A stretch of DNA of 64,000 nt from a virus (lineage: Duplodnaviria > Heunggongvirae > Uroviricota > Caudoviricetes): IMG/VR virus record IMGVR_UViG_3300048574_000421; one strand, given 5' to 3'. The translations under genes and the position numbers were made by a program. Below are positions 4,905-57,300 of this stretch, in pieces. The notes beneath the pieces are model-generated. The model had not been told where the DNA came from and made no database searches. It was given only the letters and a program-made list of their open reading frames with translations. Each line of letters starts with the position of its first letter. Positions within the stretch are counted from its first letter, which is position 1.

Positions 4905-4957
4905 TTTAATGAAGAGCTGGGATAGCTCTTTAGACAGGACAGGGATAAAAATTAAAA

Positions 4958-5360
4958 TGGAGGTAAAGGGAATTGAACCCTTGTCCATAGAACAATCCAA
5001 ACAAACTTCTACATGTTTATCTGATTTGTATCTTACATTCTTTTATCTTAAAACCAGAAAACTTTCTAAAAGAACGGCATAAACGTAATTTCGGTCCCCT
5101 TCTCACTTATGCACTTCGGTTTTCCTACGCTGTGTCAATTAGATCTTAAGCTCCACAGTATTGCCTAAGTTCTTCGTTGCTTTTAATTAAGCAACAATTG
5201 TATTCGCCATGCCCAAACGAACATTGTTCGCAAAAGCAAGAGCGAAATTAACTGCAATTTTGTTGACAGTTATATTGTAACCAGATTTTTAACGAGGCCA
5301 ACTGATCATCCTCGGCATGCAATCTGCACTTCATGTTCCATGTCGAAACCTGATACCCCC
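4958..5360 (-). ncRNA. ssrA: tmRNA (transfer-messenger RNA, ssrA)
   Basis: The minus strand 5' end GGGGGUAUCAGGUUUCGACAUGG matches the canonical tmRNA 5' end (E. coli GGGGCUGAUUCUGGAUUCGACGGG). Downstream, GCAUGCCGAGG...GUUGGCCUCGUUAAAAA matches the PK1 region of E. coli ssrA almost base for base. The 3' end GGACAAGGGUUCAAUUCCCUUUACCUCCA is a tRNA-like T-arm plus acceptor. The 5' GGGGGUA pairs with the 3' UACCUCC, giving the G3:U70 alanine identity pair, with discriminator A and CCA not encoded. Length is about 400 nt. The segment is ORF-free in the track. Confidence 0.75.
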
Positions 5361-31317: not shown

Positions 31318-32874
31318 TCAATTTTTTATTGCATCAACAAAATATTGTGGGAAAAATTTTCTATTTTGTTTAAGAAAGTAATTAAATTGACTATCCATGA
31401 TGTAGATCGTGCAAAAATCTTTTTCATGTCTTACACCACGACCTGCAGCTTGAACAAGCGTCAAAGCTGTTTTCCACTTATACCATTCACTATCAAGCTC
31501 CATACGTTTTTTTATTTGTTTGTCTCCCAAAAACATAAATGGCAACTTAACTATAACAACAAATCTTGCAAGATCGTCTTTTAAATCAACACCTTCTGTC
31601 ATTGAAGGTGTGATCAAAACTTTAGGCTCTTTTGTTTCTAAAAAACCTTTAAGTGCGTTAATTCGAGATTCACTATCATGTAAAATTAATCTTGATTGAT
31701 ACTTAGGATCGACGTTTTCTTTTATGTAATTTGCAATTTTATAAGAATGTGCATGAATCAATCCTTTTTCTGAATCATGAAACTCTAAAATCCTGCCTAT
31801 ATCAAAAGCTATTTTGGGTAAAGATTCTTCAATGTCGTTTTTTCCTAAATTCCCAGACCTTGTTAATATGATTGGTCTTATATCTACAGGAAATGAAGAA
31901 GGAACTTGAATAAACTTTGTCTTCTTAATATCTAAATCTAAATTTTTACAAAAACTATCTTTATCAAGAATTGTCGCTGACATAAATAGTTTTTTTTCAG
32001 CATGCCTAAAAAGTAAATTTTGAGCAAAAAACCCGACAGTTAAAGGTTTGAAAATAATTGTTTTTGACCTTAACTTTTCGTTAGTTGTTATATCAAAGAT
32101 CCACTCTATTTTCCCATAACTCTCCAAAAACATTTTTACACGTTCTTGTTGACTTATTAAGCTCTCAAGCTCTTTTTGAAGGTCAGAAATTATTGCTACA
32201 TCAAGAAATTTGTTTTTCAGTTTTTCTGTAGTTTCTTTTCTTCTTTCTTTTATTTTCTCTTGAAGCATCTTTAACCACTCGACATATTCTTCGAGTTTTT
32301 CATATAAAGGTATTTTTGAAGTTACACCAAGTTTTGAAAGATTGAAAGACGAAAAACTAAACTCAACAAACGACATACACTCATTATCTAAACTATGTGC
32401 TTCATCACATATCAAAAGTTTTCTATCAGGAAAAGTATTTGTGTAATTTGTAATACAAAGAAAGTACTTATAGTTCATTAAAGCAACAAAAGATTCTACA
32501 GCTTGTTGTTTTGCAACTTCATAAAAGCACTCGGGTTTTACAGGACATTGTTTTGTAGAACAATATGAATCTTCACATGTAAAATCAGGAAGCAATTTGC
32601 AAGGATAGTTGTTTCTACCTTTAAGAACTCTAACTCTACCCGAACTATAATCTTTTATGTATTGATCTTGAAGTATTTTTTGCGACGTTAAAAGGAAAGC
32701 AGATTTATAATAAAGTCCCAGACAAATTGCAATAGCGCTTTTACCTGAACCTGTAGGGCTTTCCAAAACAACATTCTCTATTTCTTCAGAATCTAAACTC
32801 TGTTGTATGTCGAGAATTGTTTCTTTTTGAAAAGGTCTGAACGTCGTGTGTGGGAAAAAATCGAGAACGCTCAT
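31318..32874 (-). CDS. XPD/Rad3/DinG-family Fe-S DNA helicase
   Basis: Motif I ESPTGSGKS, DEAH box ICDEAHSL, a Cys cluster between them (YPCKLLPDFTCEDSYCSTKQCPVKPEC), and motif VI QAAGRGVRHEKDF. Confidence 0.7.
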   Translation of the reverse strand: MSVLDFFPHTTFRPFQKETILDIQQSLDSEEIENVVLESPTGSGKSAIAICLGLYYKSAFLLTSQKILQDQYIKDYSSGRVRVLKGRNNYPCKLLPDFTCEDSYCSTKQCPVKPECFYEVAKQQAVESFVALMNYKYFLCITNYTNTFPDRKLLICDEAHSLDNECMSFVEFSFSSFNLSKLGVTSKIPLYEKLEEYVEWLKMLQEKIKERRKETTEKLKNKFLDVAIISDLQKELESLISQQERVKMFLESYGKIEWIFDITTNEKLRSKTIIFKPLTVGFFAQNLLFRHAEKKLFMSATILDKDSFCKNLDLDIKKTKFIQVPSSFPVDIRPIILTRSGNLGKNDIEESLPKIAFDIGRILEFHDSEKGLIHAHSYKIANYIKENVDPKYQSRLILHDSESRINALKGFLETKEPKVLITPSMTEGVDLKDDLARFVVIVKLPFMFLGDKQIKKRMELDSEWYKWKTALTLVQAAGRGVRHEKDFCTIYIMDSQFNYFLKQNRKFFPQYFVDAIKN

Positions 32875-35898: not shown

Positions 35899-36616
35899 CT
35901 AGTCTTGAATTCAATTTAGGTTCTTTTGCAAAATCTTTCTTTGATATTCGTTCAAGCATATTGTTAATTTGTCTAAACAAACTATTAAAATCTTCTTCAG
36001 TTCTTTGTGTAAACAAAATATCTCCATCAATAGGATATGCAAGCGCTCCATGAATTGATTCTAATGGATATTTATATAGTTCTTTAATGAAAAAACTATA
36101 AAAAGTGATTTGTGTATTGTTGTCAATATCTTTCTCTTTGCTTTTTGAAGATTTCCAATCAAGACAAATGATTATTTCATTGTTCTCAAGAATAATATCA
36201 ATCCTACCTGACAAAAAAACATTATCAAGATAAGGATTAATAAAGGGTATCTTACAATATTTTTCTATTTCAACTACTCTAAAACCTTCCCAACGTTTTT
36301 TCATTTTCTTGACATTTCCAATTTGCAATAATCCCTTAACTAAACAATCATCAAGTTCTTTTGCATTAGGAAAATTTAAACCCTTTGCTTCTGTACAAAA
36401 AGCTATAAACAATGCTTTCCAAGATGAAGCAATTTCATCTAAACTCATTCCATACTTGAAATGTAATTCTAAAGCTTTATGTAAGACTGAACCAAAAGTC
36501 GTAAAAATATATGCTTCATCAGCTGGTCTCTCATCAATAAACTGCCATTTGTACATTTGCGAACATTTAAAAAACGAAGACAAAGATGATGAAGAAACTG
36601 TTAAATAATCTCTCAT
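35840..36616 (-). CDS. Cas4/RecB-family PD-(D/E)XK nuclease with Fe-S cysteines
   Basis: N-terminal Cys (FFKCSQMYKWQF) plus a C-terminal CYFCQYKKTCAK triad. Core residues GRIDIILE...LDWKSSKS fit D...E.K. It overlaps the primase gene by 59 nt. Confidence 0.6.
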   Translation of the reverse strand: MRDYLTVSSSSLSSFFKCSQMYKWQFIDERPADEAYIFTTFGSVLHKALELHFKYGMSLDEIASSWKALFIAFCTEAKGLNFPNAKELDDCLVKGLLQIGNVKKMKKRWEGFRVVEIEKYCKIPFINPYLDNVFLSGRIDIILENNEIIICLDWKSSKSKEKDIDNNTQITFYSFFIKELYKYPLESIHGALAYPIDGDILFTQRTEEDFNSLFRQINNMLERISKKDFAKEPKLNSRLGDCYFCQYKKTCAKNDREL

Positions 36617-37959
36617 GATTTCATCTCGTTAAACAAAAACTCTACTGCTTTTTCATTTACTGTACCAATGTACATCGAGTTATAAGGTATTTTATTTTGT
36701 AACAGATCTTGCTTAATTTTTGCCTCTCTATTAGAATCAAATTTTAAAAGATTTGTAATTCTCATTGTATAAGCAACAACTTCATCTTCTGTAGCTTTGA
36801 TATCAAAATCCTTAACAATCTGTTCTATAACAAGTGACGTCTTCACTACTTGAATTGTACGAGGTGTTGTGTTTACGATAAAACTTTCTTTTGTTACTTT
36901 GCTTTCTTTTTCAAGTTGTCCTTCAGTTTTCCCCATACGTCTCAATAAAGCTTCCCACTCATTATCATTTTCTTTATCGATCATCACTTGTGGAATTGGT
37001 GAAATTTCTGATTCATCAACAATTTTTGAAAGAATGACTTTTTTAAACGTATCAATTGATTTCTTTTGTTTTTCATCAAGTAAACGAATTTTCAAATTAT
37101 CTTCATAAGCTTGAATAGAATCAAAACCCTTTGATTTTGCAAAACTGTCATTATAATCAGGTGCGACTTTGTATTTTATTGCATTTAGTTTTACAGTAAA
37201 TATAACTTTTTTACCTGACAATTCTTTACTATGATAATCAACAGGGAAAGTCACATTTACTTGACGTACTTCGTTAATTTTCATTCCGACAAGTTGATCT
37301 TCAAAATTATCAATAAATTGCTTTCTTCCATTGACAAGATCATTTACTCTAATCTGATAGTTCTTTGCTGTTCCACCTTTAAAAGGTGTTGTTTCTCCAT
37401 CAAGAACACCTTCAAAATCTATTAAAGCAATATCAAGATTTTCTAAAATTTCTTTTGTAGAGTCGTGAATTGTTTCGCTTTGTTTGATTTCTGCATCAAT
37501 CTTCTCTTTTAACTCAACATCAGAAATAGTTGTTGCTTCAAGTTTCTCTGTTTCTTTTATCTTATCTAATGAAACAAGTTTGACAGTCGGTTTTACTTCA
37601 GCAACAAACTCTATAGTAAGTGTTGATTTTCTTTTTAAATCTCCAAAGATCTTAAAATCTCTAGTCGAGACAAGACTAGTTTCTAATGTCGCAATGTCTC
37701 TAACAATCTGATCAATCATTGATTTATATAAACGTTCAACGCCAATTTTAGTTTCAGCAACATCTTGAGGTACACAACCTTTTCTAAAACCTGGTACTTC
37801 GATTTCAGACTTTACTCGTTCGTAAGCAGCTTTCTTTCTTTCATTCACATCATCAGCATCAACTGTGACAATGTATTTTACAGGTGTTGGCATTTTTTCT
37901 GTCTTAATGTCCATTATACTACTCCTTGTCTTTCTCGACAACTGTCGAAGATGCTTCAT
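36613..37959 (-). CDS. tig: trigger factor homologue (ribosome-associated chaperone/PPIase)
   Basis: Ribosome-binding signature PGFRKGCVP (TF: GFRKGKVP). FKBP-like domain IDFEGVLDGETTPFKGG...VNVTFPVDYHSKELSGKKVIFTVKLNAIK (E. coli TF: IDFTGSVDGEEFEGG...[27 protein letters not shown]). The overall three-domain length is 448 aa. Confidence 0.75.
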   Translation of the reverse strand: MKHLRQLSRKTRSSIMDIKTEKMPTPVKYIVTVDADDVNERKKAAYERVKSEIEVPGFRKGCVPQDVAETKIGVERLYKSMIDQIVRDIATLETSLVSTRDFKIFGDLKRKSTLTIEFVAEVKPTVKLVSLDKIKETEKLEATTISDVELKEKIDAEIKQSETIHDSTKEILENLDIALIDFEGVLDGETTPFKGGTAKNYQIRVNDLVNGRKQFIDNFEDQLVGMKINEVRQVNVTFPVDYHSKELSGKKVIFTVKLNAIKYKVAPDYNDSFAKSKGFDSIQAYEDNLKIRLLDEKQKKSIDTFKKVILSKIVDESEISPIPQVMIDKENDNEWEALLRRMGKTEGQLEKESKVTKESFIVNTTPRTIQVVKTSLVIEQIVKDFDIKATEDEVVAYTMRITNLLKFDSNREAKIKQDLLQNKIPYNSMYIGTVNEKAVEFLFNEMKS

Positions 37960-41943: not shown

Positions 41944-44900
41944 TTAAAAGTGCTTCTTTACTTTAAACAAAGGTTCAGATTCGTAAATTTTCATTCTTTT
42001 CTTTGAATGACCAGTAAGATATCGAATTCTATCATAAAAATCAACAATAATTGCTTCTTTTTTTTCATTATTTTCAGCTGAAGGGTATGGTCTTAACGTA
42101 CGTCCCACTCTTTGTAAGGACTTAATAAGCGATTTGCCTCCACCTGCCATAATTGCTGAACCTAAAGCAGGTATGTCTACACCTTCGTCAGCAACAGAAC
42201 TTCCTACAAGAACTTGTAATTGTTTTTTACGAACTTTGTTAAGTAAATCTTTTCGCATCTCTCCATCAACTTCACCTTGTATAAAAGCAACAGAGCTAAC
42301 TCCCGCCTTGTCTAGCATTTCACATAACACATCACCATGAGGTAACCTGGTGACAGTAATCAACACAGACTTACCTAACTCGAGTAATCGTAGGCAACTA
42401 TCAACAATCATTTCATTTCGAAGTTTATTGTTAACAATATAATCTTCGTAAATATTCCTAAAAGATTTTTGGACATATTTATATCTTGGATGCTCATTTG
42501 GGTCAAGCATGTAGATGTGAGGTTGTACAAGAAAACCTCGTTCTATAAGAAAAGATGCATCAATGTTACAAATCTGTCTGCCTGAATAAGCATCAAGCAC
42601 TTTATCAATTGATTTGTCTCTATAAGGTGTTGCTGAATTGTGAACAAGTACACCATTTGCGAAAAAATTCTGATTTTCTGGGCCTACATCTTCAATAGTT
42701 AAATCTAAAAGAAAATCTTCATTATTTTCTATTTCGTTTTTTGAAATTAATGTGATTATTGGATCTTCAAACAGTAAAAAACTTAATTTTTGTTTTAGTC
42801 TAAAAGCTTTAAGATCTTCTCTTCTCAAAACTAAGTAATTAAAATTTAATGATTTATAAATTTCATCTTTATAGTAAGGTATTCTATCCATACCATCATA
42901 TTCAAGATAAAAATCTTTTCCTTCATGTTTGACTTTAAAATCAGCAAAACATCTAGTTCCAGGAATGTTGGGATGTATTTCGTGACTTATATTATTCTTG
43001 TAAAGCCAATTATCAAGCATCATTTCACCTTTAGAATCACAAATATGCCCGTCTATAGCTTTAACAGATTTTGCATATCTTTTTACGCCTTCCCTTTTTA
43101 ATCTTGATTGCGAGACAAGACCAGAAATAATCATTGGCGTTATTATTTTTAATCTTTCTTCTTTTGTTTTCTTACTCCAAGCTTTTTTTGATCTTTTACT
43201 AACAAGTTCAGAATCAATAAAATTTGGATGGTGACACATTCTTTCAAATTTTTCAGGTTCTTCTTGTCTTAAGTGCTGCATTGTCTTTTTTTGCCTTGCA
43301 CTCATTTTTTCTCTATCTTTTTTTGTCAAATTCTTAAAAAATTCTTGTGATGCTTTGTTTCCTAGTTTAAGGAAGCTTTTTCGTCTAACCTGTTCATCAT
43401 CAGATAAACTGTCCCACCATTCTTTACGTTTTTTTGTTCTTATTTTATTCGATTCTTTAAGTTTGCATCTATCAGAACAATATTTATGTGGTGCAACAAC
43501 TTCTTTTCCACAAACGCAAAATCTTTTTATTTTCTCTATTGAACTAAACTTATCACCTATAGTCAAATCTATTGCTTTTTTAAAATCATTAATATCATTA
43601 ACATAAAATAAATGTGTTTCAGCACAAATTATTCTTATTTTTTCTTTATTTTCATTTTCAAAAATCAACTCAAATAATCTTTTTCCTTTGGCATCAATCT
43701 TAATAATTCTTGCTTTTTTAGGTTCCAATATTTTTTTAATTAGATTAAAAGTCATAACTTGAATAAATTTATCTTTATTTGCATAATACAAAGGTGATAA
43801 CTGACATTCTCTACCATCAGCAAGTAAGACTTTAGTTTTTTTATGAAGGCATAAACTGTACCGGTAATATGCATTTTGATATAATTTTGCCATCTGAATA
43901 TAAATCTCAGCAGTTGCACGATGACAATTACTTACAAGTATTCCTTCAGCAAAATAATTGTGATTATCTTCAACCTCAATATTATACCTTTTCTCATCTT
44001 TTATTTTCTTTTGCATCCTTACGCTCTTAACAACAGCTTCATCATGATTAAAAACAAAAGTGTTTATTTTTAATTTTGTCTCTTCCCAATTTTCTTCTAT
44101 GTCTTCATTTGTTAAATAAAGACATTTAAAATCTATTGATTCAAAACCCTTTTTTACTCTTTCAATCTCTTCTTTTGTGTGCCAAAAAGTTATATTACCA
44201 ACTTCAATTACTTTTCTTTGGTTTTTAATTTTAAAATCGGGATTTTTACTCCAACATTTTCCATCAGGTTTAGTGCCTATTCTTAACCAAAACTTACCAT
44301 TACCTGTATATCTAATCTCTGGTATTTTCAAATCTAGTATTGCTTGTTCTAAACGTGTTGGCTTTATTTCTTTTCCTTTTATACGTTTAGGTGCATTCAT
44401 AAATCTTTCTCTAACTATAGCCTTTTCTTCTTCTGTTTTATTTTCAAAATTTTTTAACCAGCCCAGTCTCATTCTCTCTCTTATTACAGGATTTTTATTC
44501 ATTTTAGACATTAAGCTTGAACGTACTTTAAAATGCTTCAATTTTGATTGTTCAGAAAATTTTATTTTTTCTCTGTGCACTCTCTCTCTATGTAAACATC
44601 TATGTTTTTTACAATAAAATCTTGGTCTTGACCTATTTGCATTAATTTTTAACACATCACTCTCTAACAAATCTTTTGCTTGAACATAACCCCTATTTTT
44701 TGTCCAAAACTTATGACTTGGTGTACAAAATATTAATTTTTCTTTTCCTTTAAAAACAAAAGTTATAATACACCAAGGTTCAGAAACTTGCGTTATTAAT
44801 CTACGTAATATTCGTTTTTGCTCAAAAATTTGTTTTTCATGATTATAAGATAAAACATGTGTAATTGCATCATTTTCACAAATATCTTTGATGTACATAT

Positions 44901-45675
44901 ATTCATCTAAACTTATATGTACGTGGGTTTCTGCTTGAAAACACTCATCATTTATTACAACATCAGCTTCAAGTACAGCTTTTCTAATATCTTCTTTTCT
45001 TTCAAGAACATGCTTTTGAATTTTTTCTTTAAACATGTTCTCTTCATCAATTGCACTGTATTTCAAATCAAATGCACTATGTAAAGTCTGTACAGTACAA
45101 ATATTTATTTGTTTAATATCGCAATGACCACCACCTATTTTCCCAACTTTTATTTGAAACATCTTTTCGAATTCATCAGCAGTTTGTTCAAGTAAATCTA
45201 TTGAATAAACAATGAAAAGAGTTTTTAAATTCAATCGTGCTACAATTGCAGCAGCAATAACAGTCTTGCCACCACCAGTTGCAACTTTTATTACACCACG
45301 TTCAGCTTCAATAGATTTTTCAACAACTTCATGCTGATAATCTCTTAATTGTTTTGAATGCATTTGCAAAGGTTCACCAATAATTGGAACATTACGTGCA
45401 TCTACAACATTAAAAGATAGACGGCAGTCATTTAATATGCTTTCTAATGTCGAATAAAGTCCTGTAGGATAACGAAGTTGTTCACGTTCAAAAAGTGTTA
45501 TATCAAGTTCTATAGTTTCTTTTCTAAATCTCGAATACTCTTCTCGAGAATAAGACATTTCATGCTCAATACGTCTAACAAGATCAGTATTCAATCTTAT
45601 GTTAGGTTTTAAATGAGTCCAAGTGTTTTCTATAACAATATCAAAATCTGCCATATTACTTTCTAATATAATCAA
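41944..45675 (-). CDS. SF2 DNA helicase (UvsW/XPB-like) precursor interrupted by two inteins
   Basis: Motif I KVATGGGKTVIAAAI. Motif II is reconstituted as VVINDE+CH (a DECH box) when residues 245-583 are removed. Motif III SATPYR follows residues 609-1013. Motifs V and VI are GSSVADEGVDIPALGSAI and QRVGRTLRP. Spliced size is about 499 aa. Confidence 0.8.
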   Translation of the reverse strand: MIILESNMADFDIVIENTWTHLKPNIRLNTDLVRRIEHEMSYSREEYSRFRKETIELDITLFEREQLRYPTGLYSTLESILNDCRLSFNVVDARNVPIIGEPLQMHSKQLRDYQHEVVEKSIEAERGVIKVATGGGKTVIAAAIVARLNLKTLFIVYSIDLLEQTADEFEKMFQIKVGKIGGGHCDIKQINICTVQTLHSAFDLKYSAIDEENMFKEKIQKHVLERKEDIRKAVLEADVVINDECFQAETHVHISLDEYMYIKDICENDAITHVLSYNHEKQIFEQKRILRRLITQVSEPWCIITFVFKGKEKLIFCTPSHKFWTKNRGYVQAKDLLESDVLKINANRSRPRFYCKKHRCLHRERVHREKIKFSEQSKLKHFKVRSSLMSKMNKNPVIRERMRLGWLKNFENKTEEEKAIVRERFMNAPKRIKGKEIKPTRLEQAILDLKIPEIRYTGNGKFWLRIGTKPDGKCWSKNPDFKIKNQRKVIEVGNITFWHTKEEIERVKKGFESIDFKCLYLTNEDIEENWEETKLKINTFVFNHDEAVVKSVRMQKKIKDEKRYNIEVEDNHNYFAEGILVSNCHRATAEIYIQMAKLYQNAYYRYSLCLHKKTKVLLADGRECQLSPLYYANKDKFIQVMTFNLIKKILEPKKARIIKIDAKGKRLFELIFENENKEKIRIICAETHLFYVNDINDFKKAIDLTIGDKFSSIEKIKRFCVCGKEVVAPHKYCSDRCKLKESNKIRTKKRKEWWDSLSDDEQVRRKSFLKLGNKASQEFFKNLTKKDREKMSARQKKTMQHLRQEEPEKFERMCHHPNFIDSELVSKRSKKAWSKKTKEERLKIITPMIISGLVSQSRLKREGVKRYAKSVKAIDGHICDSKGEMMLDNWLYKNNISHEIHPNIPGTRCFADFKVKHEGKDFYLEYDGMDRIPYYKDEIYKSLNFNYLVLRREDLKAFRLKQKLSFLLFEDPIITLISKNEIENNEDFLLDLTIEDVGPENQNFFANGVLVHNSATPYRDKSIDKVLDAYSGRQICNIDASFLIERGFLVQPHIYMLDPNEHPRYKYVQKSFRNIYEDYIVNNKLRNEMIVDSCLRLLELGKSVLITVTRLPHGDVLCEMLDKAGVSSVAFIQGEVDGEMRKDLLNKVRKKQLQVLVGSSVADEGVDIPALGSAIMAGGGKSLIKSLQRVGRTLRPYPSAENNEKKEAIIVDFYDRIRYLTGHSKKRMKIYESEPLFKVKKHF
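42637..43851 (-). mobile_element. intein 2 (405 aa) inserted immediately before helicase motif III
   Basis: Block A is CLHKKTKVLLADGRE. Block B is CAETHLFYV. C-terminal blocks are LLDLTIEDVGPENQNFFANGVLVHN followed by the +1 Ser of SATPYR. The internal zinc ribbon is FCVCGKEVVAPHKYCSDRC. The DUF559/Vsr-like module is LDNWLYKNNISHEIHPNIPGTRCFADFKVKHEGKDFYLEYDG. Confidence 0.7.
43927..44943 (-). mobile_element. intein 1 (339 aa) inserted in helicase motif II
   Basis: Begins with Cys (CFQAETHV...). Block B is CTPSHKFWT. C-terminal blocks are YNIEVEDNHNYFAEGILVSN followed by the +1 Cys. The internal module LEQAILDLKIPEIRYTGNGKFW...PDFKIKNQRKVIEVGNITFWH is DUF559/Vsr-like. Boundary codons were checked against the nucleotide sequence. 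Confidence 0.7.
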
Positions 45676-46513: not shown

Positions 46514-49450
46514 CTATTTTGTTACTATTCTTTCTTCAAGATGAAATAAATCAACAAGAATGTTCTCACCAATTTCACCTGTATGTACACCTTTATTACC
46601 TATTTGTACCATAAGATAAAGTTGTCCTGTTGTTTTATTTCTAACCAAAATTGGCATAATAAATTCAGCATAAGTAGAATCAACTAAAGGCTCTTCAAAA
46701 ATAACTTCTAACATTGGTAAACCGAAGAAACCTCTTGGTGCTTGCAATGTTGGCATTGTATAATCTTCTGACCATAATTGTCCTCCACCATGATATCCAT
46801 ATAGATCATATGTTGCAGTTGACCAAAAATCTGAATTATAACGTTTTTTTCCACAACTTGAAATCTCTATTGCAGTTCCATTTCTTAAATGATCATCAAA
46901 TGAACCTGGTAATCTTGGTGAAACAGGAGTGTATGCTTGATTTGAAGTACCGCTTGAACCTGTAACGCTTATAGTTCCTCCACCAGTACCATTATTAAAG
47001 AAAACACCTTTTTCTCTTTTATAAGTTAAAGAAAGTGTTTGACCTCCGACAGAACTACCCTGATAAGGAGTGTATGAATAAATCATTCTTATGTCGGCAC
47101 CATCATGTGGTGCTCCAAGATAGTCGCAATCAATCCACACAGATTGTCTATCAGCCATAGAATTTATATAACTATTATTATATGACTGCGAACAATCAAT
47201 AATATAACCACCAATATCGTACCCATAACCTGCACTTTGTCTGACTTTTATTCTTGTGCCTGCCCATTTGAATTGTGATTCAGTAGCACCTGTAGGAATT
47301 GGCCATATATCACCTGTTTGATTACACAATATTATTCTCGATCCAATAGCAGAACCTGTAACAACTTTATGTTCAAGAACAAAACTTAAAGCAGAACCTT
47401 GATACATATATCCAAGTAATTCGATTTCTGAACCTACACCTGAAGGAATATATTGTAGTGATGACAGTGTTCCAATAAAACTATCTTCTTCTAACAAAAT
47501 TTTGTTTTCAGAAATTATTAAATCAGAAACTTGAAGTCTTGTTACGACTTGTTGCATTGCAATCTCTGTACCACCTGTAGCTGAAGTATAAACACCTCGT
47601 AAATGTTGTAAAGGATATGGTACGTGAACAGTTTTCGCTGTCTTATTAAGAGTCTCAACTTGTAATGTTCGTGTTGTCCCATTTTTTTCTGATGTAGTTT
47701 GAATCAAAGGCGAAATCTTTATTTGTTTACGTTGTTTAACTAGATTAGTCTCCGTAAATGTTTCAGTGTTTGTTTTATTCTCAAATGGATGTTGTAATAA
47801 ATCCTGATAACGCATTGTTTCAGTCTTTATATTTGAACCTCTAACAACTGTTCCACTAGAACCAAATGCAGAAGCATTAAAATACTGAACTCTTAAAAGT
47901 TCATCAGGTGTATAAGTAAGACCTTGATTAACAGGAAATTCAAGATCATAATAGACCCAAATACTATAACTTGTTCCAACCCAGACACCAGGAGGCAAAG
48001 CATAAGTTGCTTGATCTGTATTTAAACCTGCCCAGGCACCTCCTATTATAGGTGTTTTTGCAGTGTCTTCTAAATAAAGACGAGGTGTTGATTTTATAAT
48101 TGTTCCAACAGGTAATCTTGTAGTAGTCTTAAAAACAATTGTATTGCCTATTGCCCAATTTCCTGTACCTGCACCTCTATAAACATCTAAAGCTGTACTA
48201 AAAGTTGTTGTTGTAACTTTAGCAAAAATATCAGACTGTTGTGTGATTGCATCAGACCAATAAATTCTCTTTCCACTTGCTCCAGCATTAGAAAGAAAAT
48301 CATTATAACCAAGAACGTCAGTGTCAGAAATCGAATCATATGCAAGCATTTGTTGCCAATTAGTTCTCAATGTCCCTCTAAAAAGTTTGTCTAAATTTTG
48401 CTCCATTATTTTTTGATAGTCTAATGACAAAGCAATTTTATTTCTAAGATCAACAATATCAGTAGCATCAATTCCATCATTAAATTTTTTATCAGGCCTG
48501 TCAGAAACAAGACTTGAAAGTGGCGTTGAGTTTCCAGCTTGATTATAAGGTACAGATGCTAAATCGCCTGCTGTATCATTATAAGGGTTTGTTCCTCTTC
48601 TACTAATTTTGAACATAGGTATTGCATAAACATAACCGTCAACAGTTTTCAAAGTCGTTTGTGAAGCTTGATTCCCACTTCCTGCACGCCATAAACCTGC
48701 ATCACCAAGTTCTGTAGCCATATTTGTGAAACCATAACCTGTAAGTTGAGGTGAGTTTCCAGCACCTTGAGCTTGAACAGAACTGTTTTCAAAACCTGAA
48801 GAATCAGTGTTTGTAAAAACTACATCAGAAACACAACGTATTCGATATTGTATTTGTACACGTTCAGAAGTTTCTTCATCAAACACAGTATCAATTGAAT
48901 CATCAGGCAAATTTGTTCCTGTAAATTGAACATTTCCAAACTTATACACATATTCACTTGTTGGTTTATTCTGATTATAAGGAACATTATTTTCATCTCT
49001 TGCTCTGAGTTGTGCTCTCCATACTTCTAAAAACACAAAATCAGTACGTCGACTGCTTGGAGCTTCTAAAACTATACAATTCAAAATAGAACTTGTGAAA
49101 TTTGTTCCACCAACAAGAAGCGGCCAACCATTTACTATTGCATTTGGCAATGCTAATTCTTGTTGATTTTCTTGAGCGTAAAACTCTACTGTATTTGAAA
49201 TACCTGAGTTTGTCGAATGTTTATTTTTACCTAAATTTAACCAACCACTTGGTAAAACAGAACGTATTGTGTTAGTGAACATTTCCATTGACAAATCATT
49301 AATCAAATTCCACTCTGAATCTAATGCTGGCTTACCTGTCCTCCAAATGACATTTGTATAAGACTTGTAGTTTGTTTGTATTGTCCTTGAAACTATTTCT
49401 TCAGAAGGTGTCAGTTTTAAAGCATTATAATTATTTGTCCCTAGATTCAT
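46514..49450 (-). CDS. large virion protein, probably tail fibre/tailspike-like (978 aa)
   Basis: G/T/S/N-rich composition and its position next to other fibre genes. No catalytic motif recognised. Confidence 0.45.
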   Translation of the reverse strand: MNLGTNNYNALKLTPSEEIVSRTIQTNYKSYTNVIWRTGKPALDSEWNLINDLSMEMFTNTIRSVLPSGWLNLGKNKHSTNSGISNTVEFYAQENQQELALPNAIVNGWPLLVGGTNFTSSILNCIVLEAPSSRRTDFVFLEVWRAQLRARDENNVPYNQNKPTSEYVYKFGNVQFTGTNLPDDSIDTVFDEETSERVQIQYRIRCVSDVVFTNTDSSGFENSSVQAQGAGNSPQLTGYGFTNMATELGDAGLWRAGSGNQASQTTLKTVDGYVYAIPMFKISRRGTNPYNDTAGDLASVPYNQAGNSTPLSSLVSDRPDKKFNDGIDATDIVDLRNKIALSLDYQKIMEQNLDKLFRGTLRTNWQQMLAYDSISDTDVLGYNDFLSNAGASGKRIYWSDAITQQSDIFAKVTTTTFSTALDVYRGAGTGNWAIGNTIVFKTTTRLPVGTIIKSTPRLYLEDTAKTPIIGGAWAGLNTDQATYALPPGVWVGTSYSIWVYYDLEFPVNQGLTYTPDELLRVQYFNASAFGSSGTVVRGSNIKTETMRYQDLLQHPFENKTNTETFTETNLVKQRKQIKISPLIQTTSEKNGTTRTLQVETLNKTAKTVHVPYPLQHLRGVYTSATGGTEIAMQQVVTRLQVSDLIISENKILLEEDSFIGTLSSLQYIPSGVGSEIELLGYMYQGSALSFVLEHKVVTGSAIGSRIILCNQTGDIWPIPTGATESQFKWAGTRIKVRQSAGYGYDIGGYIIDCSQSYNNSYINSMADRQSVWIDCDYLGAPHDGADIRMIYSYTPYQGSSVGGQTLSLTYKREKGVFFNNGTGGGTISVTGSSGTSNQAYTPVSPRLPGSFDDHLRNGTAIEISSCGKKRYNSDFWSTATYDLYGYHGGGQLWSEDYTMPTLQAPRGFFGLPMLEVIFEEPLVDSTYAEFIMPILVRNKTTGQLYLMVQIGNKGVHTGEIGENILVDLFHLEERIVTK

Positions 49451-49991: not shown

Positions 49992-50127
49992 ATTGTTTCC
50001 CGTTTTTACCGTTTTTTACTTGGCATATAATAATAAGTTCATAATAAATGCTGTAGAAAATTTTTTAAATATTGATTTTCTCTTGCTGTTTTTTTTAATA
50101 ATTTATGTAAGTCAAAAGGAGTTTAAG

Positions 50128-50553
50128 ATGAATTTCACAGGTGAAGTCAAAAAATTCAAAAAAGTAATAGAGTTTTTTGAAGAAAAACTGAAATACAAAG
50201 ATTTTTCAGTTCTAAAAGAAATAAAGCTAAATATTGGCTATAGTTTTTATGGTGCTTGTATATACCCATATAAATGCAATAACTTTTATTTAATAAAATG
50301 TAGACTCAAAAAACAATCTTATCCCAATTATTCATCTTTTTATATTCGGAAAAAAGAGTCTTGCTTACTTCTTAAAACAATTATGACTTGTGACAATTAT
50401 TTTGATGATATGATTTGGGTAGTTGGCCATGAACTTTTTCATTATTTAAGAGATACACGTCAAATCGAAGGAAAAAACACTGAAGCACAAGCAAACGAAT
50501 TTGGACTTAAGTGCCTTAAAGAATTTCAACGCAACCATTCTACGACTTTGTAA
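50128..50553 (+). CDS. HEXXH zinc metallopeptidase-like protein (ImmA/IrrE- or SprT-like). It is the only plus-strand gene in the window.
   Basis: Motif VVGHELFHYLRD. The probable start is the ATG at 50128, preceded by AAAGGAG at a spacing of 7 nt. The track ORF starts at 49993 but has no RBS there. A sigma-70-like TTGATT ... TAATAA lies upstream at about 50072-50102. Confidence 0.5.
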   Translation: MNFTGEVKKFKKVIEFFEEKLKYKDFSVLKEIKLNIGYSFYGACIYPYKCNNFYLIKCRLKKQSYPNYSSFYIRKKESCLLLKTIMTCDNYFDDMIWVVGHELFHYLRDTRQIEGKNTEAQANEFGLKCLKEFQRNHSTTL

Positions 50554-51303: not shown

Positions 51304-54300
51304 TTAAGACCAAGTTACTGTATAAACATCTTGTATTCTACACATCTTATTTGTGATAGAAACAGCACCTAAACGATATCTTGTATCATTCAAATATGTA
51401 AAATAAATATCTGGTTGCTTCCCTGATTCAATTGAATATTTTTTTACGAACTCTCCTAGAATAAGTGGTTCTCTAAACTCTGAAATCCTGTCAAAATCTT
51501 CAGGAAAATCTGGGTTAGTAATTGTTGGATCTTCTTCAATACTTCCAGGGTATGGTAATCCAATATATGGTTCTCCAACATAAAGTAAAGCTACACCCAA
51601 AGTAGGTTTATCACACACATGAGCATGAGGCATTACTTCGGGTATTTGAATTCTACCAATTATTTCTCTTGTAATAATTGATTTTCTTTTTTCAATAAGC
51701 ATATCAACAGCATTATTTTCAAGATTAAAATCATCACTTGCTGTATCTTCAACATAGAAATATTCACTACCACCACCAAAAACGCTGTCAGGATCGTTAA
51801 GATAAAATGTCACAATTCTATAAATGAAATATTGATTGTACAAGTATGTCACTTCAATAACATCACCCCAAATAGGTACAGTATCAATAACAACAAGTCC
51901 TGTTAAAGGATCAATACTCAAAACAACAACAGGTGAACCATTAATTGTTACTATTATATCATCTGTTGTTGCAACGTGTGTTGAATCACTAAGAACAGGT
52001 ATTCTACTAATATAAAAGAAATTTTCTGATCCAGTAAACTGAGGTGATACATTGTCTGTGTATGTCTCTAATGCAGCCAAACCTTCACTACAATCTTCAC
52101 GCACATCTTCTTCAAAACGACTTACAAAACTATATTTGAATCTGTCACAAATAGCAGTGTCAGATTGTGTCTCAGCAGCTTGATAACCGTCATAAGCAAT
52201 TTGAGGAACTCTATTACCAAACTGATCTATCACATAATTTCCAAACAAATCTTTTTCCCATAAAAGAACGCAGCCAGCTTGAAAATCAAATGAATCTGTC
52301 CAAGAAAAACGTTGTACTACAAAAACATGTGCAGGTTTAACAAGATTAAAAACGTGCGTTAAATTATTACTTAAAGCAACTAAATCAACACCTGTAAATT
52401 TTTCATTTATAATAATATCAGCTGTAAAAACAAATTGATCAGAAATATCAGAACCTTTTGTGAATACAACTTCAATAATTTTCACATCGGTCCCGAGAAA
52501 CAGTGCAACACCTTCTTCAATTGATGACTTCAAAGATCCTTTAAAAAAAATCGATATTAAAGAAAGAAGCAACCTTCTATAATCATCATGAGAAAGACCT
52601 GTCACAGGTTTTGTATCAAGCAAATAACCTAGTTTTTCATAAAGATATAAAGGTCTTAGTGTATCATAATCTCTATCTAAATCGAGGTCATTAAAACTAT
52701 CTTGGTACCTTGAAAGTTCTAACGAAATCGCTTTATGATGCCCATAAAAGTTAGTCGATTTTGAACGAGAATAATTACTTGCAATATTCTGTTGTATATC
52801 ATTTATGTACTCTAATGCAACTCTATTCAGGTAATTCCTTTTTTTCACTGATGTTGTTGCATAAATATGAGGAATGAAAACATAAGAAAAAACATCCATC
52901 ACATTATTAGAATTGTCTGAAGAATAAATTTTAACAGAGACAGGCACTTTATGCTCAAAACTAAAACTTGGACTTGCAAAAACCAAGTAACCTTTTCCTC
53001 TTTCAATAAAAGAGAAGTTCAAGTTTTCTTCTGGCAAATAAAAATCTACAATGTTTTGTTGCTTAATATCTAAACTTCCAACATTCAACAATAACGTACT
53101 TTCAGTTTGTTCAAATCTTGCATCTATAATTTCAGCTGAATAATCAGGTAAACTATTCAAATACAATTCAATCTTTTTAATTGTATTATAGTTTGACTCA
53201 TAAAAGCTTATCGAAATATCTTTTAATGAATCAACATAAGTTGTCAAAGATTTGTTATAAATTTGCAGTGTTGCTGAACTTGCAGAACCTGTATATTGAA
53301 CTTTTAAAATATTTCTAAAATTAATCTTAAAATCTATACTATTTATATTTACTACAACAGTTTTTATGTTTACACCAGACTGACTATCATCTATAAAAGC
53401 AATTACGTTAGAGTTTGTTGAAACATCTTGAACATTAGGTGCAGGATATGTTTCTCTTACCCAAGGACTTGTCAAATCAGGTTTAATTAAATTAAACTCT
53501 AAAGTAGGCGTTACATTGCCAGCAAAATCTGTTATGTTTTTTACTTTTAAAATCTCTACATCTTGAAAATTCAAAAGTTGTGCTATCGGAGAGATAACTA
53601 CTGTATAAAGAGACTGTGTGCCTGTATAAGAAAAATATGAAGAATTTTTTTGTGTTGAATAAACAATTCCATCAACATCAATCTCAATAGAATCAATGTT
53701 CACACCAGATAAAGAATCACTAACTTGGAATGAAATCTGTGTTGTAGAATCTGTTATTATACAATCTACAGGTGAAAAATTCGATACTTCAGATGCTTCA
53801 AGATCAATATTGACAACTTGCGTCTTAATTGTTTCTATATTACCAGCATTGTCTATAGAAAAGAACTTTAATGTATAAGTTCCAGAAGAAGAGAACTCTA
53901 CAAAACTACCAGAAGGTGATGATATATTAGGATCAGTACCATCTGTTGTATAATATGTAGTAGCAACACCTGATCCTGTATCTACAACAACAAAATTAAT
54001 TATAGAATGTGAAGTATAACCCAGTAAAGGTGCATCTGTTGTTGTCTCTGGAGGTGTGATATCATATTTTACAACAGAAACTCTTTCTTGTTCTATGTTG
54101 CCTACATTGTCAGTACTATAATATGTAATTGTTACAGCACCCTCAACAGGCAATAAAAAGGGTACTCCAGTATACTCAATAAATGCTAAATCATCATTTA
54201 TTCTATAAAAAGTTTGATTTGCTCCTGAATAAACATCAATAACAGTAAAACTAATTTCAGGTTGTGTTCTATACCACCAGTTTTCACCATCAGGTGTTGA

Positions 54301-57300
54301 TGGGTCAATATTAATGATGGTAATAGGAGGATCAGCATCTACATTTAAAAGATTTCCACACGACTTTGTAGTTTCTTCATTTCCCGCAATATCAACAGAA
54401 AAATATTGCACGTCGTAGATTCCAGAAGAACCAAGATTTATTGTTGTCCCTTCAGATGAAACTCTTGAAGGGATTAAACCATCAGTAGTAAAGTAAGTCT
54501 TTGAAACACCAGAACCAGGCATTACATCATTTGGTGTTAACAATATTGTAATTGGAGCTTTTATCCAATCTGTAGTCGTAGGTGCATCGTCTGTAGTCAC
54601 AGGTGCAACTCTATCAAGTTTATAAGGTATTGATTTGATTTTGCTTTGTTTTTGTGGTACACCTGTTCCTAAGACAGTGTTGTTATCATAAACTTGAGCA
54701 TAAACTGAGTGCAAACCATCTTGCGAATAAAATTGCTCTAATGTTCTAGAAAAATGAACAAGGTAATTTACTCTATCATTTGACATGTCAACAAATTTAC
54801 TTACATCATTGTATACTTGTACTTCTGTGATTAAACTTGTACTTTCTAAACCTAAAGCTACTTTCTCAATTCCTATATAATGCGTATAATCTACAAGCAC
54901 TTTATCTTTTAAAGAGTAATGTGCTACATAAACTGCACCAGACAATGGACTTAAGATTGTTACAACTCTACTACCATCAAAAACATAATCTGTATCTTGT
55001 ATTAGAGGAATAGAATTTCTTGTGACTACTAAAGTACCTGACATTGGTACATTACTTAGATAATCAGTTGGTAAAGATTGACTGATGTCGAGATTTTGAT
55101 TGACGTCAATAACTAAAGGTATAGAATTTGCTATTGGTCCAGTAACTAAAATTTCATCATAAAATCCGTCAGATCCCTGAAGAATTTCTACACATACAAA
55201 TTGTTTTTTAGAAATTGATGTTTTTACACACTCTACAGTTTTTACAAACTGATTTGCAAGTTTAAACTTATAGTAAGTAGATGAATAGATATGGTTACTT
55301 GTTTTATCAACAGGCAAATAATCAGGGTTTGTACTTCCAAAACCAATAGTATTTCCAATTGATCTTAATTTATTTACACCTGTTGCCCATAATAAATTAA
55401 AATTATTTGTTGGATTTGTTTCTATTTTAAATGAATAACCTTCAGACACAGAACTTTCAGCTAAACTTACTACATAATTAAATGTACCTACATCATTGAG
55501 TCTGTTTTGGATTTCTGTAGCTAATTGTTGACTTGTATAAGTTCCAGCTGTAATAGTTGCAACTAATGGCACGCCAATTACTTCTTCAAAATCTATTGTA
55601 TCGTTTTGTGCAGTTACAACTATGTGTGTATTTGCTTCAACAACATCTTCATCAATTCTGTTTACGCGATCACTTGACCATAGTTCTACGTTTAAATCGA
55701 AATTATACTTGAACCAACCATTTTCTCCATTTTCTAAAGGATCAGTAACAAATTCAAGTTGTAAATCAGGTTCACGTTTGTCTATAGTGACTTCAAATTG
55801 AGCTTTTTTGACAGCTTCAGTATTTCCTGCTGCATCAACAGAATAATAAAAAATCTTATAAGTATCAGACAATGATAATTCTATTACAGTTCCCTCAACC
55901 CAAGTAGCAAGCTCAAAAGCATCTTCAGGTAACAAATTTTCATCATAATCTAACGAGTAATATGTATGTTCTATGTATGACGAAACATCTGTTGGGAACA
56001 AATGAACAACAACATCATAGTCAATAACGTAAGGTTGATATTGAGGATCAATTAGTGAATAATTTACAGAACTTGAAACTTGCGGATCATGTGATATATC
56101 GTAAGCATAAGCAATATCTATAACATCACCAAAAGAAAGAGGTATACCAGAAAATTTGTAATCAACCTCAAGTCTATCACCAAGATCTATCTGTTGTGTT
56201 CCTATAAGCACAAGATTTCCATCTTGTGTTGAAAGATTTCTGTTTATAGAGTAACTGCAACTTTTTGTTTTATTGTAAACCCTTAAAACATCATCAAAAC
56301 TCGAAAGCACTGAACTTCCAAGACCTAAAAGTTGTATATTAAAATCACCAAGTCTTGTAGAGTTTTCGTTTCTTATTATTGGTAAAACTTCAATTTCATC
56401 TTTGTCAACACCTGTAGCTTGAACAAAAACATATTCCTGTGATTTTGTTATGTTAAAAAATCGAGGTACAGCTACAACATTAGGTTTTTTTACTTTTACA
56501 TGATAAGGGTCAATAACAACAGGGTTTTCATCTATAACTTGTTGATGTCCTGAACCCCTTGTTGTAAAGATTATGCCTTGAAAATTTATTGTGTCATCAG
56601 AAGTAACAGGGTTTGTATAATCAAATTTATACAAAATACGTTGATGATCTTCTTCATTTCCTGCATAATCTATTGAATAGATTTCAAGATAATGTTCGCC
56701 TTGATTTGGAATTTGTATCTCAGTACCAACAACATACTCTTGCCAACAAGTCTCGTCCCATCTGTAATAAGTTCTATATACACCTGAAAGATTATCTTCA
56801 GTCGACAGTGTAATTATAGGATTTGTTATATACCAACCATTATTTCCATCAGGTTCGAAACTATTATTTACAGAAGTAACAGGATTTTCTGAGTCAAGTT
56901 TATAACGTTTTGATGCAATTTGACTTTGATTATCGTCATTATCTACTGAATAATATTCGATTTGCCAAAAATTATCAGCAGGAATTGTAAAAGGTACTGT
57001 GTATGGGACAAAAACAACAGTCTCAGTAAATGGAGACAGAAGTAGTGCATTTTGACCAAAAACTTCTTGAGTAGCATCATTACTTAAAACAGGTAAAAAT
57101 CTTATTTCTGAAGTAGAACTACCTGTTCCTGCTGTAGGTGACGTTAAAGTAACATATCCATTTCCAGACAAACCATCAGGGCCTGTCTCAGATGCAATAT
57201 TCTCTCCTGTAATAGAATTTATTGCGCCAATAATTTCTGTGATAGTAGTTTGAAAAGGTATGACACCTCTTAAATCAACTTCAAAAAATTGACCAGATTG

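Follow-up and report, generated by a model that had tools for sequence, protein, structure and literature searches.

The DNA considered here is a 64,000-nucleotide stretch from a virus of the Caudoviricetes (IMG/VR record IMGVR_UViG_3300048574_000421), referred to below as the window, and the subject is one gene within it, a long open reading frame (ORF) for a superfamily 2 (SF2) helicase that is interrupted by two inserts (Table 1). An earlier note, made from the letters of the sequence alone, had read the inserts as inteins, each with an endonuclease module of DUF559/Vsr-like type, in a helicase related to UvsW and XPB. The coordinates and junction strings that it gave proved exact, and we consider it likely that the gene holds two class-1-type inteins with in-frame nucleases of the Vsr branch in an XPB/UvsW-like helicase, their presumed function being homing.

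The first insert separates the Glu from the Cys of the DECH Walker-B box, helicase motif II (VVINDE/CFQAETH...ILVSN/CHRATAE), and the second lies directly before the SAT of motif III (YRYSL/CLHKKTK...VLVHN/SATPYR). Removal of both in silico leaves a product of 499 amino acids in which motifs I, II (DECH), III (SAT) and VI are all present and YRYSL directly precedes SATPYR, as had been proposed. In Pfam scans, ResIII, DEAD, and Helicase_C are found in the flanks of the inserts and Intein_splicing within each insert. Excision raises the score for ResIII from 69 to 96 bits and extends the match over the full length of the model (2–164 of 164); Helicase_C scores 46 bits in the spliced product. A profile built from this product and the extein of an ortholog, P0019, matched archaeal XPB (E = 4e-30), Archaeoglobus fulgidus RAD25/XPB (E = 1e-23), and T4 UvsW (E = 3e-19) in the PDB, in agreement with the affinity originally suggested. 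Against the NCBIfam XPB equivalog the score was only 66 bits, far short of the cut-off of 610 bits, and the host is therefore described as XPB/UvsW-like and not as an XPB ortholog. From its sequence it would be a recombination/repair helicase of a large phage. Alignment with P0019 also points to a possible alternative start, an ATG at 45654 (Met8), instead of the TTG at 45675.

Table 1. Features of the intein-bearing helicase gene (aa, amino acid residues of the precursor; positions are those of the window)
Feature	Position	Strand	Remarks
Precursor ORF, XPB/UvsW-like SF2 helicase with two inteins	41944-45675	-	1243 aa
N-extein, aa 1-244	44944-45675	-	Walker A ATGGGKT at 45262-45282; terminus VVINDE is first half of motif II (DECH)
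Intein 1, aa 245-583 (339 aa)	43927-44943	-	Class-1-type; Cys1, block B TPSH, C-terminal ILVSN, +1 Cys
Intein 1 C2H2-type zinc finger remnant (FYCKKHRCLHRERVH)	44575-44619	-	Shorter than in L086, P0001, P0002
Intein 1 Vsr-like nuclease module, aa 438-545	44041-44364	-	Conserved E443, D480 (NPDFK), E491 (VIEVG), H499 (FWH), E502
Intein 1 blocks F/G (YNIEVEDNHNYFAEGILVSN)	43927-43986	-	TIGR01443; alignment to Spl DnaX mini-intein
Middle extein, aa 584-608 (CHRATAEIYIQMAKLYQNAYYRYSL)	43852-43926	-	Second half of motif II to motif III; colinear with P0019 and L109
Intein 2, aa 609-1013 (405 aa)	42637-43851	-	Cys1, block B AETH, C-terminal GVLVHN, +1 Ser
Intein 2 zinc ribbon (FCVCGKEVVAPHKYCSDRCK)	43462-43521	-	Homologous to repeated CxxC...CSxxC ribbons of P0019 and free-standing P0005
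Intein 2 lysine-rich helical linker (KEWWDSLSDDEQ repeats)	43090-43461	-	Lowest conservation in the intein; 32% identical to P0019
Intein 2 Vsr/DUF559/EDxHD-fold nuclease module, aa 863-972	42760-43089	-	
Intein 2 blocks F/G (LLDLTIEDVGPENQNFFANGVLVHN)	42637-42711	-	TIGR01443; P0019 alignment
C-extein, aa 1014-1243	41947-42636	-	SATPYRD (motif III) at start; Helicase_C; motif VI QRVGRTLR at 42091-42114

Both inserts match profiles of the Hint splicing domain. Against Pfam Intein_splicing (PF14890), intein 1 gave E = 9.5e-11 (42.2 bits; gathering score, 35.8) and intein 2 E = 8.3e-7, and the TIGR01443 intein_Cterm model scored over its cut-off for both (31 and 19 bits, respectively). The related C-terminal strings to which attention had been drawn are NYFAEGILVSN and NFFANGVLVHN. 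The splicing residues are C245, N583, and a +1 C584 in intein 1 and C609, N1013, and a +1 S1014 in intein 2, the latter with a canonical HN. Intein 1 resembles the NrdJ-1 (E = 6e-8) and Spl DnaX mini-inteins across blocks A/B and F/G, with PDB matches to 8ubs and 7cfv; a single-sequence search of the PDB with intein 2 returned no match.

The boundaries of the inserts are residue-exact in three orthologs. The metagenomic contig L109 is syntenic with the window, its flanking genes being 49–80% identical, and its helicase, 78.8% identical to and colinear with the spliced product, has neither insert and reads through the two sites as IIINDECHRCVAS and FRFSFSGTPYRDKSID. The intein-free DNA junctions of this type are AATGATGAA/TGTCAT at site 1 and TTT/TCAGGTACCCC at site 2, where the L109 DNA matches the joined exteins of the window at 39 of 60 and 40 of 60 nucleotides, respectively; megablast found no near relative of the 12-kb region. 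P0019 lies on contig L002, which is likewise syntenic (helicase ... DnaB-like ... trigger factor), and its exteins are 52.7% identical to those of the window; it has an intein only at the exact site of intein 2 (YYKLGM/C...VLVHN/SATPY), its motif II being intact (GDECHH). The third ortholog, L086 (exteins 43.5% identical), has one only at the exact site of intein 1 (DE/CH) and an uninterrupted GGLSATPE. All four combinations of the two inteins are present among the orthologs, so that the elements come and go independently, and their independent distribution argues for two separate invasions. Because there are orthologs without one or both inserts, the length of the precursor is not the normal one. 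GenBank phage homologs of the helicase span 1.4–1.7 kb, which is the spliced length, and in 80 of 80 IMG/VR relatives query residues from about 50 or 110 to 490 were matched in one unbroken stretch of 1.06–1.43 kb.

It is against this background that another account must be judged, namely that the helicase is simply long, with the inserts as permanent, lineage-specific domains, or that they are an artifact of assembly. In its favor are the score of intein 2 taken alone (29.4 bits against PF14890, under the gathering score) and the lack of any other record of the exact protein in the assembly index, but the inserts split the DECH box and part motif II from motif III, the N- and C-terminal Hint blocks lie exactly at their ends together with Cys1, the terminal Asn and the +1 Cys or Ser, the orthologs without one or both inserts have residue-exact boundaries, and the same elements occur independently in IMG/VR, Logan, ENA, and JGI assemblies. 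We regard this account as improbable in the extreme.

Because the inteins sit within motif II and before motif III, the precursor is without intact ATPase-coupling motifs, and the helicase is expected to work only after both have excised themselves. By analogy with the family, splicing would start with an N-S acyl shift at Cys245 or Cys609, followed by trans-(thio)esterification to Cys584 or Ser1014 and then by cyclization of Asn583 or Asn1013 and rearrangement to a peptide bond. The products would be the 499-residue helicase and two free inteins.

Between the Hint halves of each intein there lie, in frame, a zinc-finger or zinc-ribbon segment, a helical linker, and then a nuclease of about 110 residues, an architecture that appears to be of the phage homing endonuclease type, with a tethered DNA-binding region and a nuclease head. 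The zinc ribbon already recognized in intein 2 has homologs in the repeated ribbons of P0005 and P0019, and the linker that follows it is presumed to be a DNA-binding tether. Single-sequence Pfam, NCBIfam, and PHROG scans of both inserts returned no nuclease family at E ≤ 1; LAGLIDADG and HNH were without a match in all three, as had been anticipated, and so, in Pfam, were DUF559 (PF04480) and Vsr. Nor did Pfam give a match to NUMOD in the two inteins of the window. The assignment of both modules as nucleases rests on profiles of their homologs and on structure prediction.

Module 2 is 47% identical over 60 residues to the C terminus of P0005, a free-standing protein of 302 amino acids in which four zinc ribbons accompany a "homing endonuclease associated repeat." When searched for exhaustively with HMMER, the module was found in 1962 cluster representatives at E ≤ 0.001, and most of these have it as the C-terminal domain of proteins of 250–330 amino acids; PF18780 was found in 25 of the 48 that were scanned, and no nuclease family was among the 25 Pfam families most often matched in these 48. 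All nine of the family-invariant residues are kept in intein 2 (D875, S881, E884, D888, H898, D912 of ADF, E925 of LEYDG, Y935, and K936). An AlphaFold2 model from a 54-sequence alignment (pLDDT 92, predicted template modeling (TM) score 0.83) matched PDB entry 3r3p in Foldseek with probability 1.00 and TM scores of 0.60/0.66, and it is because of this model and the fold searches that module 2 is predicted to belong to the Vsr/DUF559/EDxHD branch of the restriction-endonuclease fold. The only other intein-embedded copy of the module that was found is that of P0019; a search of viral contigs with a two-sequence alignment found none, and tblastn gave no useful match to either module in 50,697 GenBank phages.

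For module 1, word-indexed searching found few relatives, and a scan of viral contigs added 22 further loci. In an alignment of 21 sequences N-P-D-F-K, K..E, L, and F are invariant, and E6, the W/H of [YF]WH, and a C are near-invariant; the corresponding profile placed three Vsr entries at the top of a PDB search at E values of about 0.4, which are not significant alone. By hhalign, module 1 aligned with Escherichia coli Vsr (86%, P = 5e-6, 91 columns) with T..E, PDF, G.FWH, and (G.xvLivWE) in register, and with the module 2 family (85%, P = 6e-6), this profile-to-profile match being the sole sequence link between the two modules. In both comparisons a 10-sequence profile of module 1 outscored all 150 column-shuffled controls. 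The two modules are distant homologs of each other that belong to different subfamilies. As the Pfam DUF559 model gives no match, they are superfamily relatives of DUF559 and not members, and the DUF559/Vsr-like label attached to them earlier holds for the fold class, where profiles and structure support it, and for DUF559 at the superfamily level only. The lysine of the PD-(D/E)XK pattern is not at its canonical position. Candidate catalytic residues are E443/D480/H499/E502 in module 1 and E884/D912/E925/H898/K936 in module 2.

Early PDB profile searches with 2–10 sequences had given only marginal matches to Bax1, the nuclease partner of archaeal XPB (PDB 6p4f, 6p66, 8gy8). Bax1 is at or near the top of the PDB sequence matches for both module profiles, it recurs in the fold searches, and the host protein is XPB-like, all of which would suit nucleases co-opted for the phage in place of intein mobility, for instance with the free intein, once spliced out, serving as a Bax1-like partner of the helicase or as a weapon against competing phages. 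We nevertheless hold such co-option to be very unlikely. The matches are marginal (E of about 0.06) and probably reflect the PD...E core that the fold shares; I-Bth0305I, DUF559, and Vsr outscore Bax1 structurally; the modules are found mostly in free-standing genes of typical homing-endonuclease architecture and in inteins of unrelated hosts (ribonucleotide reductase (RNR)-type Hint relatives and DinG-like, Ski2-like, and transglutaminase-like proteins); and close orthologs manage without them. A functional link of the modules with the XPB-like host was therefore rejected as the principal explanation of the Bax1 matches, on the better structural scores elsewhere and the unrelated hosts.

If the modules are instead homing nucleases, which is their most likely function, each would cut the intein-free helicase allele of a co-infecting relative near the insertion site, and recombinational repair would then copy the intein into the cut allele, a repair that the phage's own UvsX, gp32, and SbcCD-like functions could carry out. 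The large phage genome that the window represents has a T4-like block for recombination and replication (UvsX-like, gp32-like single-stranded DNA-binding protein, SbcD-/SbcC-like, DnaB-like, and DinG-like), which is the machinery that homing would need. The available alleles are divergent, with 37–51% amino acid identity. Intein 1 and the L086 intein are 51.1% identical compared with 43.5% for their exteins, and inteins that are more alike than their hosts would be expected after horizontal transfer. The nuclease modules are 58% (intein 1) and 54.5% (intein 2) identical to the respective allele and the linkers 38% and 32%; only the short Hint blocks at the C terminus, at 64 and 58.5%, exceed the nucleases in conservation. 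There is no frameshift or stop over 744 intein codons. Intein DNA has a G+C fraction of 0.27–0.28, against 0.31–0.35 for extein DNA, and a stronger negative G+C skew (42500–45000). These features would suit a pair of homing elements that were acquired independently, have been maintained by selection, and may still be active, and the case for recent horizontal transfer looks stronger for intein 1.

A number of observations weigh against this interpretation. With regard to splicing, the earlier description of canonical intein ends stands for the N-terminal Cys, the terminal Asn, and the +1 Cys or Ser but not for the TxxH of block B in intein 2, which is AETH, with its His present and a Thr at −1 and no block-B Thr (the P0019 allele has SSEH). 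Intein 1 is without the penultimate His, having Ser in its place (SN/C) as do P0003, L003, and L086, which makes the Ser look like a family trait, and the score of intein 2 by itself has been mentioned. Inteins that lack the block-B Thr or the penultimate His can still splice. With regard to the nucleases, module 2 has ADF but no FWH, so that its catalytic residues are candidates only, and its comparison with Vsr by hhalign is not significant (P = 0.2); the PDB sequence-profile matches of the modules are all marginal (E = 0.06–0.6), and an AlphaFold2 model of the whole of intein 1, from four sequences, is poor (pLDDT 48). With regard to mobility, most of the C2H2 finger of L086, P0001, and P0002 is gone from intein 1, the segment homologous to its remnant in L088 still matching zf-C2H2, and this loss could impair target recognition. 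Intein 2 and the P0019 intein are 41.9% identical, compared with 52.7% for the exteins, a divergence for which old vertical inheritance would account no less well than homing.

The last two points would also be expected if the inserts splice while one or both nucleases are decaying relics, inherited vertically without homing. To the shortened finger and the faster divergence of intein 2 than of its host gene can be added that the GD of VIEVGD reads GN in intein 1, though P0003 has the same change, and that intein-embedded copies of module 2 are so few. Decay is, however, at odds with the intact invariant residues of both nuclease families, with modules far better conserved than the linkers and N-terminal Hint halves, and with the uninterrupted intein frames, as it is with the greater conservation of intein 1 than of its host relative to L086. 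L109, the closest syntenic relative, is empty at both sites, which argues for recent acquisition or else for precise loss, a rare event. We consider relic nucleases rather unlikely.

The preferred reading, of in-frame homing nucleases, gains context from a wider set of related elements. Contiguous inteins of the intein 1 type lie at DE/CH of XPD/DinG-like helicases in L005 (P0003) and L087 and, with several C2H2 fingers, at DE/CH of a Ski2/Hel308-like helicase in L088 (2615–5920); another, in L106 (2888–4642), lies in a transglutaminase-like protein and has a nuclease without the WH motif. In at least three different SF2 helicase families, what the intein 1 lineage targets appears to be the DExH box itself, which suggests that homing-site recognition is of the motif-coding sequence and not of one gene. 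The window has its own DinG-like/XPD-like helicase (Helicase_C_2; 31318–32874, minus strand), which is intein-free and has CDEAHS as motif II; since its L005 and L087 homologs carry an intein 1-type element, it is a potential ectopic target of intein 1.

Other relatives are split. In L003 (361–2212) and L004 (767–2534) a first ORF consists of the helicase's N-terminal portion, the intein's N-terminal portion and the nuclease and ends in a real stop, and a second, which starts inside a conserved 8-nucleotide stop/start overlap (ATGGCTAA), encodes the intein's C-terminal portion (VYDIEVEDNHNFLANDILVSN) and the C-extein; the insertion site, DEFHH/S, is three residues downstream of that of the window. 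Truncation at contig ends was considered for P0001 and P0002 and rejected, as real stop codons are followed by an overlapping ORF for the intein's C-terminal portion. The DinG-like helicase of L005 (87–2545) has two inteins, of which the first is contiguous with a Vsr-like module and the second split, with a free-standing gene for an 83-residue PD-ExK protein (Phage_endo_I-like) between its halves. In the cultured, 497-kb Bacillus phage G (L108; JN638751.1, 152904–155536) the homologous helicase is fractured by a split intein at DE/CH: gp221 ends MFDE/CLSYDSKVL and gp223 begins VEDNHNFFAENTLVHN/CHHLPS, and gp222, which overlaps gp221 by 8 nucleotides, is an ORF of 73 amino acids with no nuclease. 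The GenBank record gives gp221 and gp222 no functional product name and gp223 only that of DNA helicase.

Free-standing relatives of module 1 (L090–L105) are proteins of 256–467 amino acids, and all four of those scanned have NUMOD3 or a helix-turn-helix (HTH) upstream of the nuclease; overall, the free-standing relatives of the modules carry NUMOD3, HTH, HNH_repeat, or zinc ribbons. Upstream of the intein-embedded nucleases there are C2H2-type fingers (L086, L088, P0001, and P0002) or zinc ribbons (intein 2 and P0019), and the K/E-rich helices that precede these nucleases share a KxWW..LS..E motif. Together, the free-standing NUMOD/HTH gene, the nuclease on a split N-terminal fragment, the nuclease-free split intein of phage G, and the contiguous intein of the window may form a natural series. 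A separate observation concerns P0004, a 545-residue fragment of an RNR large subunit with the N-terminal part of an intein at the classical RNR site. Its block-B region (ICTPDHEIYTKNRGYVQAKDLIESDVLKI) is near-identical to that of intein 1, a likeness that suggests that host genes have exchanged Hint domains, and the protein, ending right after the intein's N-terminal portion, may be another split form.

Vsr-like nucleases have been associated with inteins before. Dassa et al. (2009; PMC2677866) described Vsr-like endonuclease genes standing free between split-intein halves, the "fractured genes" of Global Ocean Sampling metagenomes, with stop/start overlaps of 6–69 bp, and steps IIa/IIIa of their model allowed for such a gene to come to lie in frame inside a contiguous intein. 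Taylor et al. (2011; PMC3239194) characterized I-Bth0305I (PDB 3R3P) and named the EDxHD family, the enzymes of which have DNA-binding modules upstream of the nuclease (PMC3239194, PMC3943268). A 2025 preprint on some 800 actinobacteriophage inteins (bioRxiv 10.1101/2025.01.02.630785) found Vsr-like nucleases only in split inteins and, antisense, in full inteins; it presented the antisense location as a new finding, noted no other intein-associated reports, and predicted that indels or inversions could bring the nuclease into the intein frame.

The window's elements resemble I-Bth0305I and other EDxHD enzymes in their phage origin, in the apparent tethering of a DNA-binding region to a C-terminal Vsr-like nuclease, in the association with inteins in genes of DNA metabolism, in the PDF...G.FWH that module 1 keeps from Vsr, and in the NUMOD3 of free-standing relatives. 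They differ in that the known members stand free between split halves, in intron ORFs, or alone, whereas those of the window are in frame in a contiguous intein, and in that module 2 has neither FWH nor a sequence match to Vsr. The antisense nucleases of actinobacteriophages are similarly associated with full, non-split phage inteins but lie on the opposite strand, outside the intein polypeptide, whereas those of the window are sense and in frame, in another host gene and another phage group; the antisense ORFs within the window's inteins (43355–43606 and 44177–44617, plus strand) have low-complexity translations. The resemblance to fractured genes lies in the splicing domain of intein 1, which is like that of the NrdJ-1 split intein, in the fractured helicase genes of L003 and L004 with their 8-nucleotide overlap, in the textbook arrangement of the second L005 intein, and in gp221/gp223 of phage G, split at DE/CH. 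In contrast, both inteins of the window are contiguous, and L003 and L004 have the nuclease as a fusion to the N-terminal intein fragment and not as a free-standing gene. The window, L003, and L004 look like steps IIa/IIIa of the 2009 model, for which Vsr-like examples have hitherto been lacking.

In having an in-frame endonuclease and in their insertion in the most conserved catalytic motifs, the two elements are comparable with LAGLIDADG and HNH inteins of helicases and other ATPases, such as that in the DnaB P-loop, from which they differ in the class of endonuclease, in the XPB/UvsW-like SF2 host, and in the sites, motifs II and III. Two inteins in one gene are already known, mycobacterial DnaB being an example (PMC6195587). 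From E. coli Vsr (PDB 1CW0) and Pfam DUF559 (3HRL) the modules are set apart by the failure of the corresponding Pfam models to match, by the lack of the Vsr zinc site and long H69–D97 insert, and by a context of mobile elements as opposed to mismatch repair.

No description of an in-frame EDxHD, Vsr-like, DUF559, or PDDEXK nuclease in an intein was found in the literature searched, whose coverage was too incomplete for a claim of priority. As the evidence now stands, a splicing element and a class of nuclease that were each known already are joined here in a combination that was predicted but undocumented, and twice in one gene with two nuclease subfamilies; public viral contigs contain the combination too, without annotation. 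That these are the first recognized contiguous inteins with an in-frame Vsr-like (EDxHD-superfamily) endonuclease, taken jointly with the series of states and the DExH targeting, is a claim we make tentatively, the balance of our judgment lying slightly on the side of doubt. The in-frame fusion is the state that the published model of intein/endonuclease co-evolution predicts but lacked for the Vsr-like class, and, if the claim is true, the series of states makes the 2009 "gene-fracturing" model directly testable. With split, half-fused, nuclease-free, and empty alleles of one site in related contigs, the origin of split inteins becomes open to study, and the family could be a source of new inteins, whether split or contiguous, with kinship to the fast NrdJ-1 class, and of nucleases with long targets. 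As the modules match no Pfam family, inteins of this kind are invisible to domain-based intein surveys.

All genes of at least 150 codons in the window are on the minus strand except one (49993–50553), and several of these surroundings deserve brief mention. A full homolog of trigger factor (Trigger_N, FKBP_C, Trigger_C; 36613–37959, minus strand) adjoins a DnaB-like helicase and is kept in L002 (9322–10617); it is, to our knowledge, an unusual gene for a phage. There is a complete transfer-messenger RNA gene at 4955–5360 (minus strand; Rfam RF00023, 127 bits), for which ARAGORN gives the tag peptide VNKIAVNFALAFANNVRLGMANTIVA. The minus strand also carries an ORF of 978 amino acids (46514–49450) with no PHROG match, another of 2664 amino acids (51304–59298), an SPFH/flotillin homolog (2279–3736), and a gene for a GLUG-motif protein (61703–63772).

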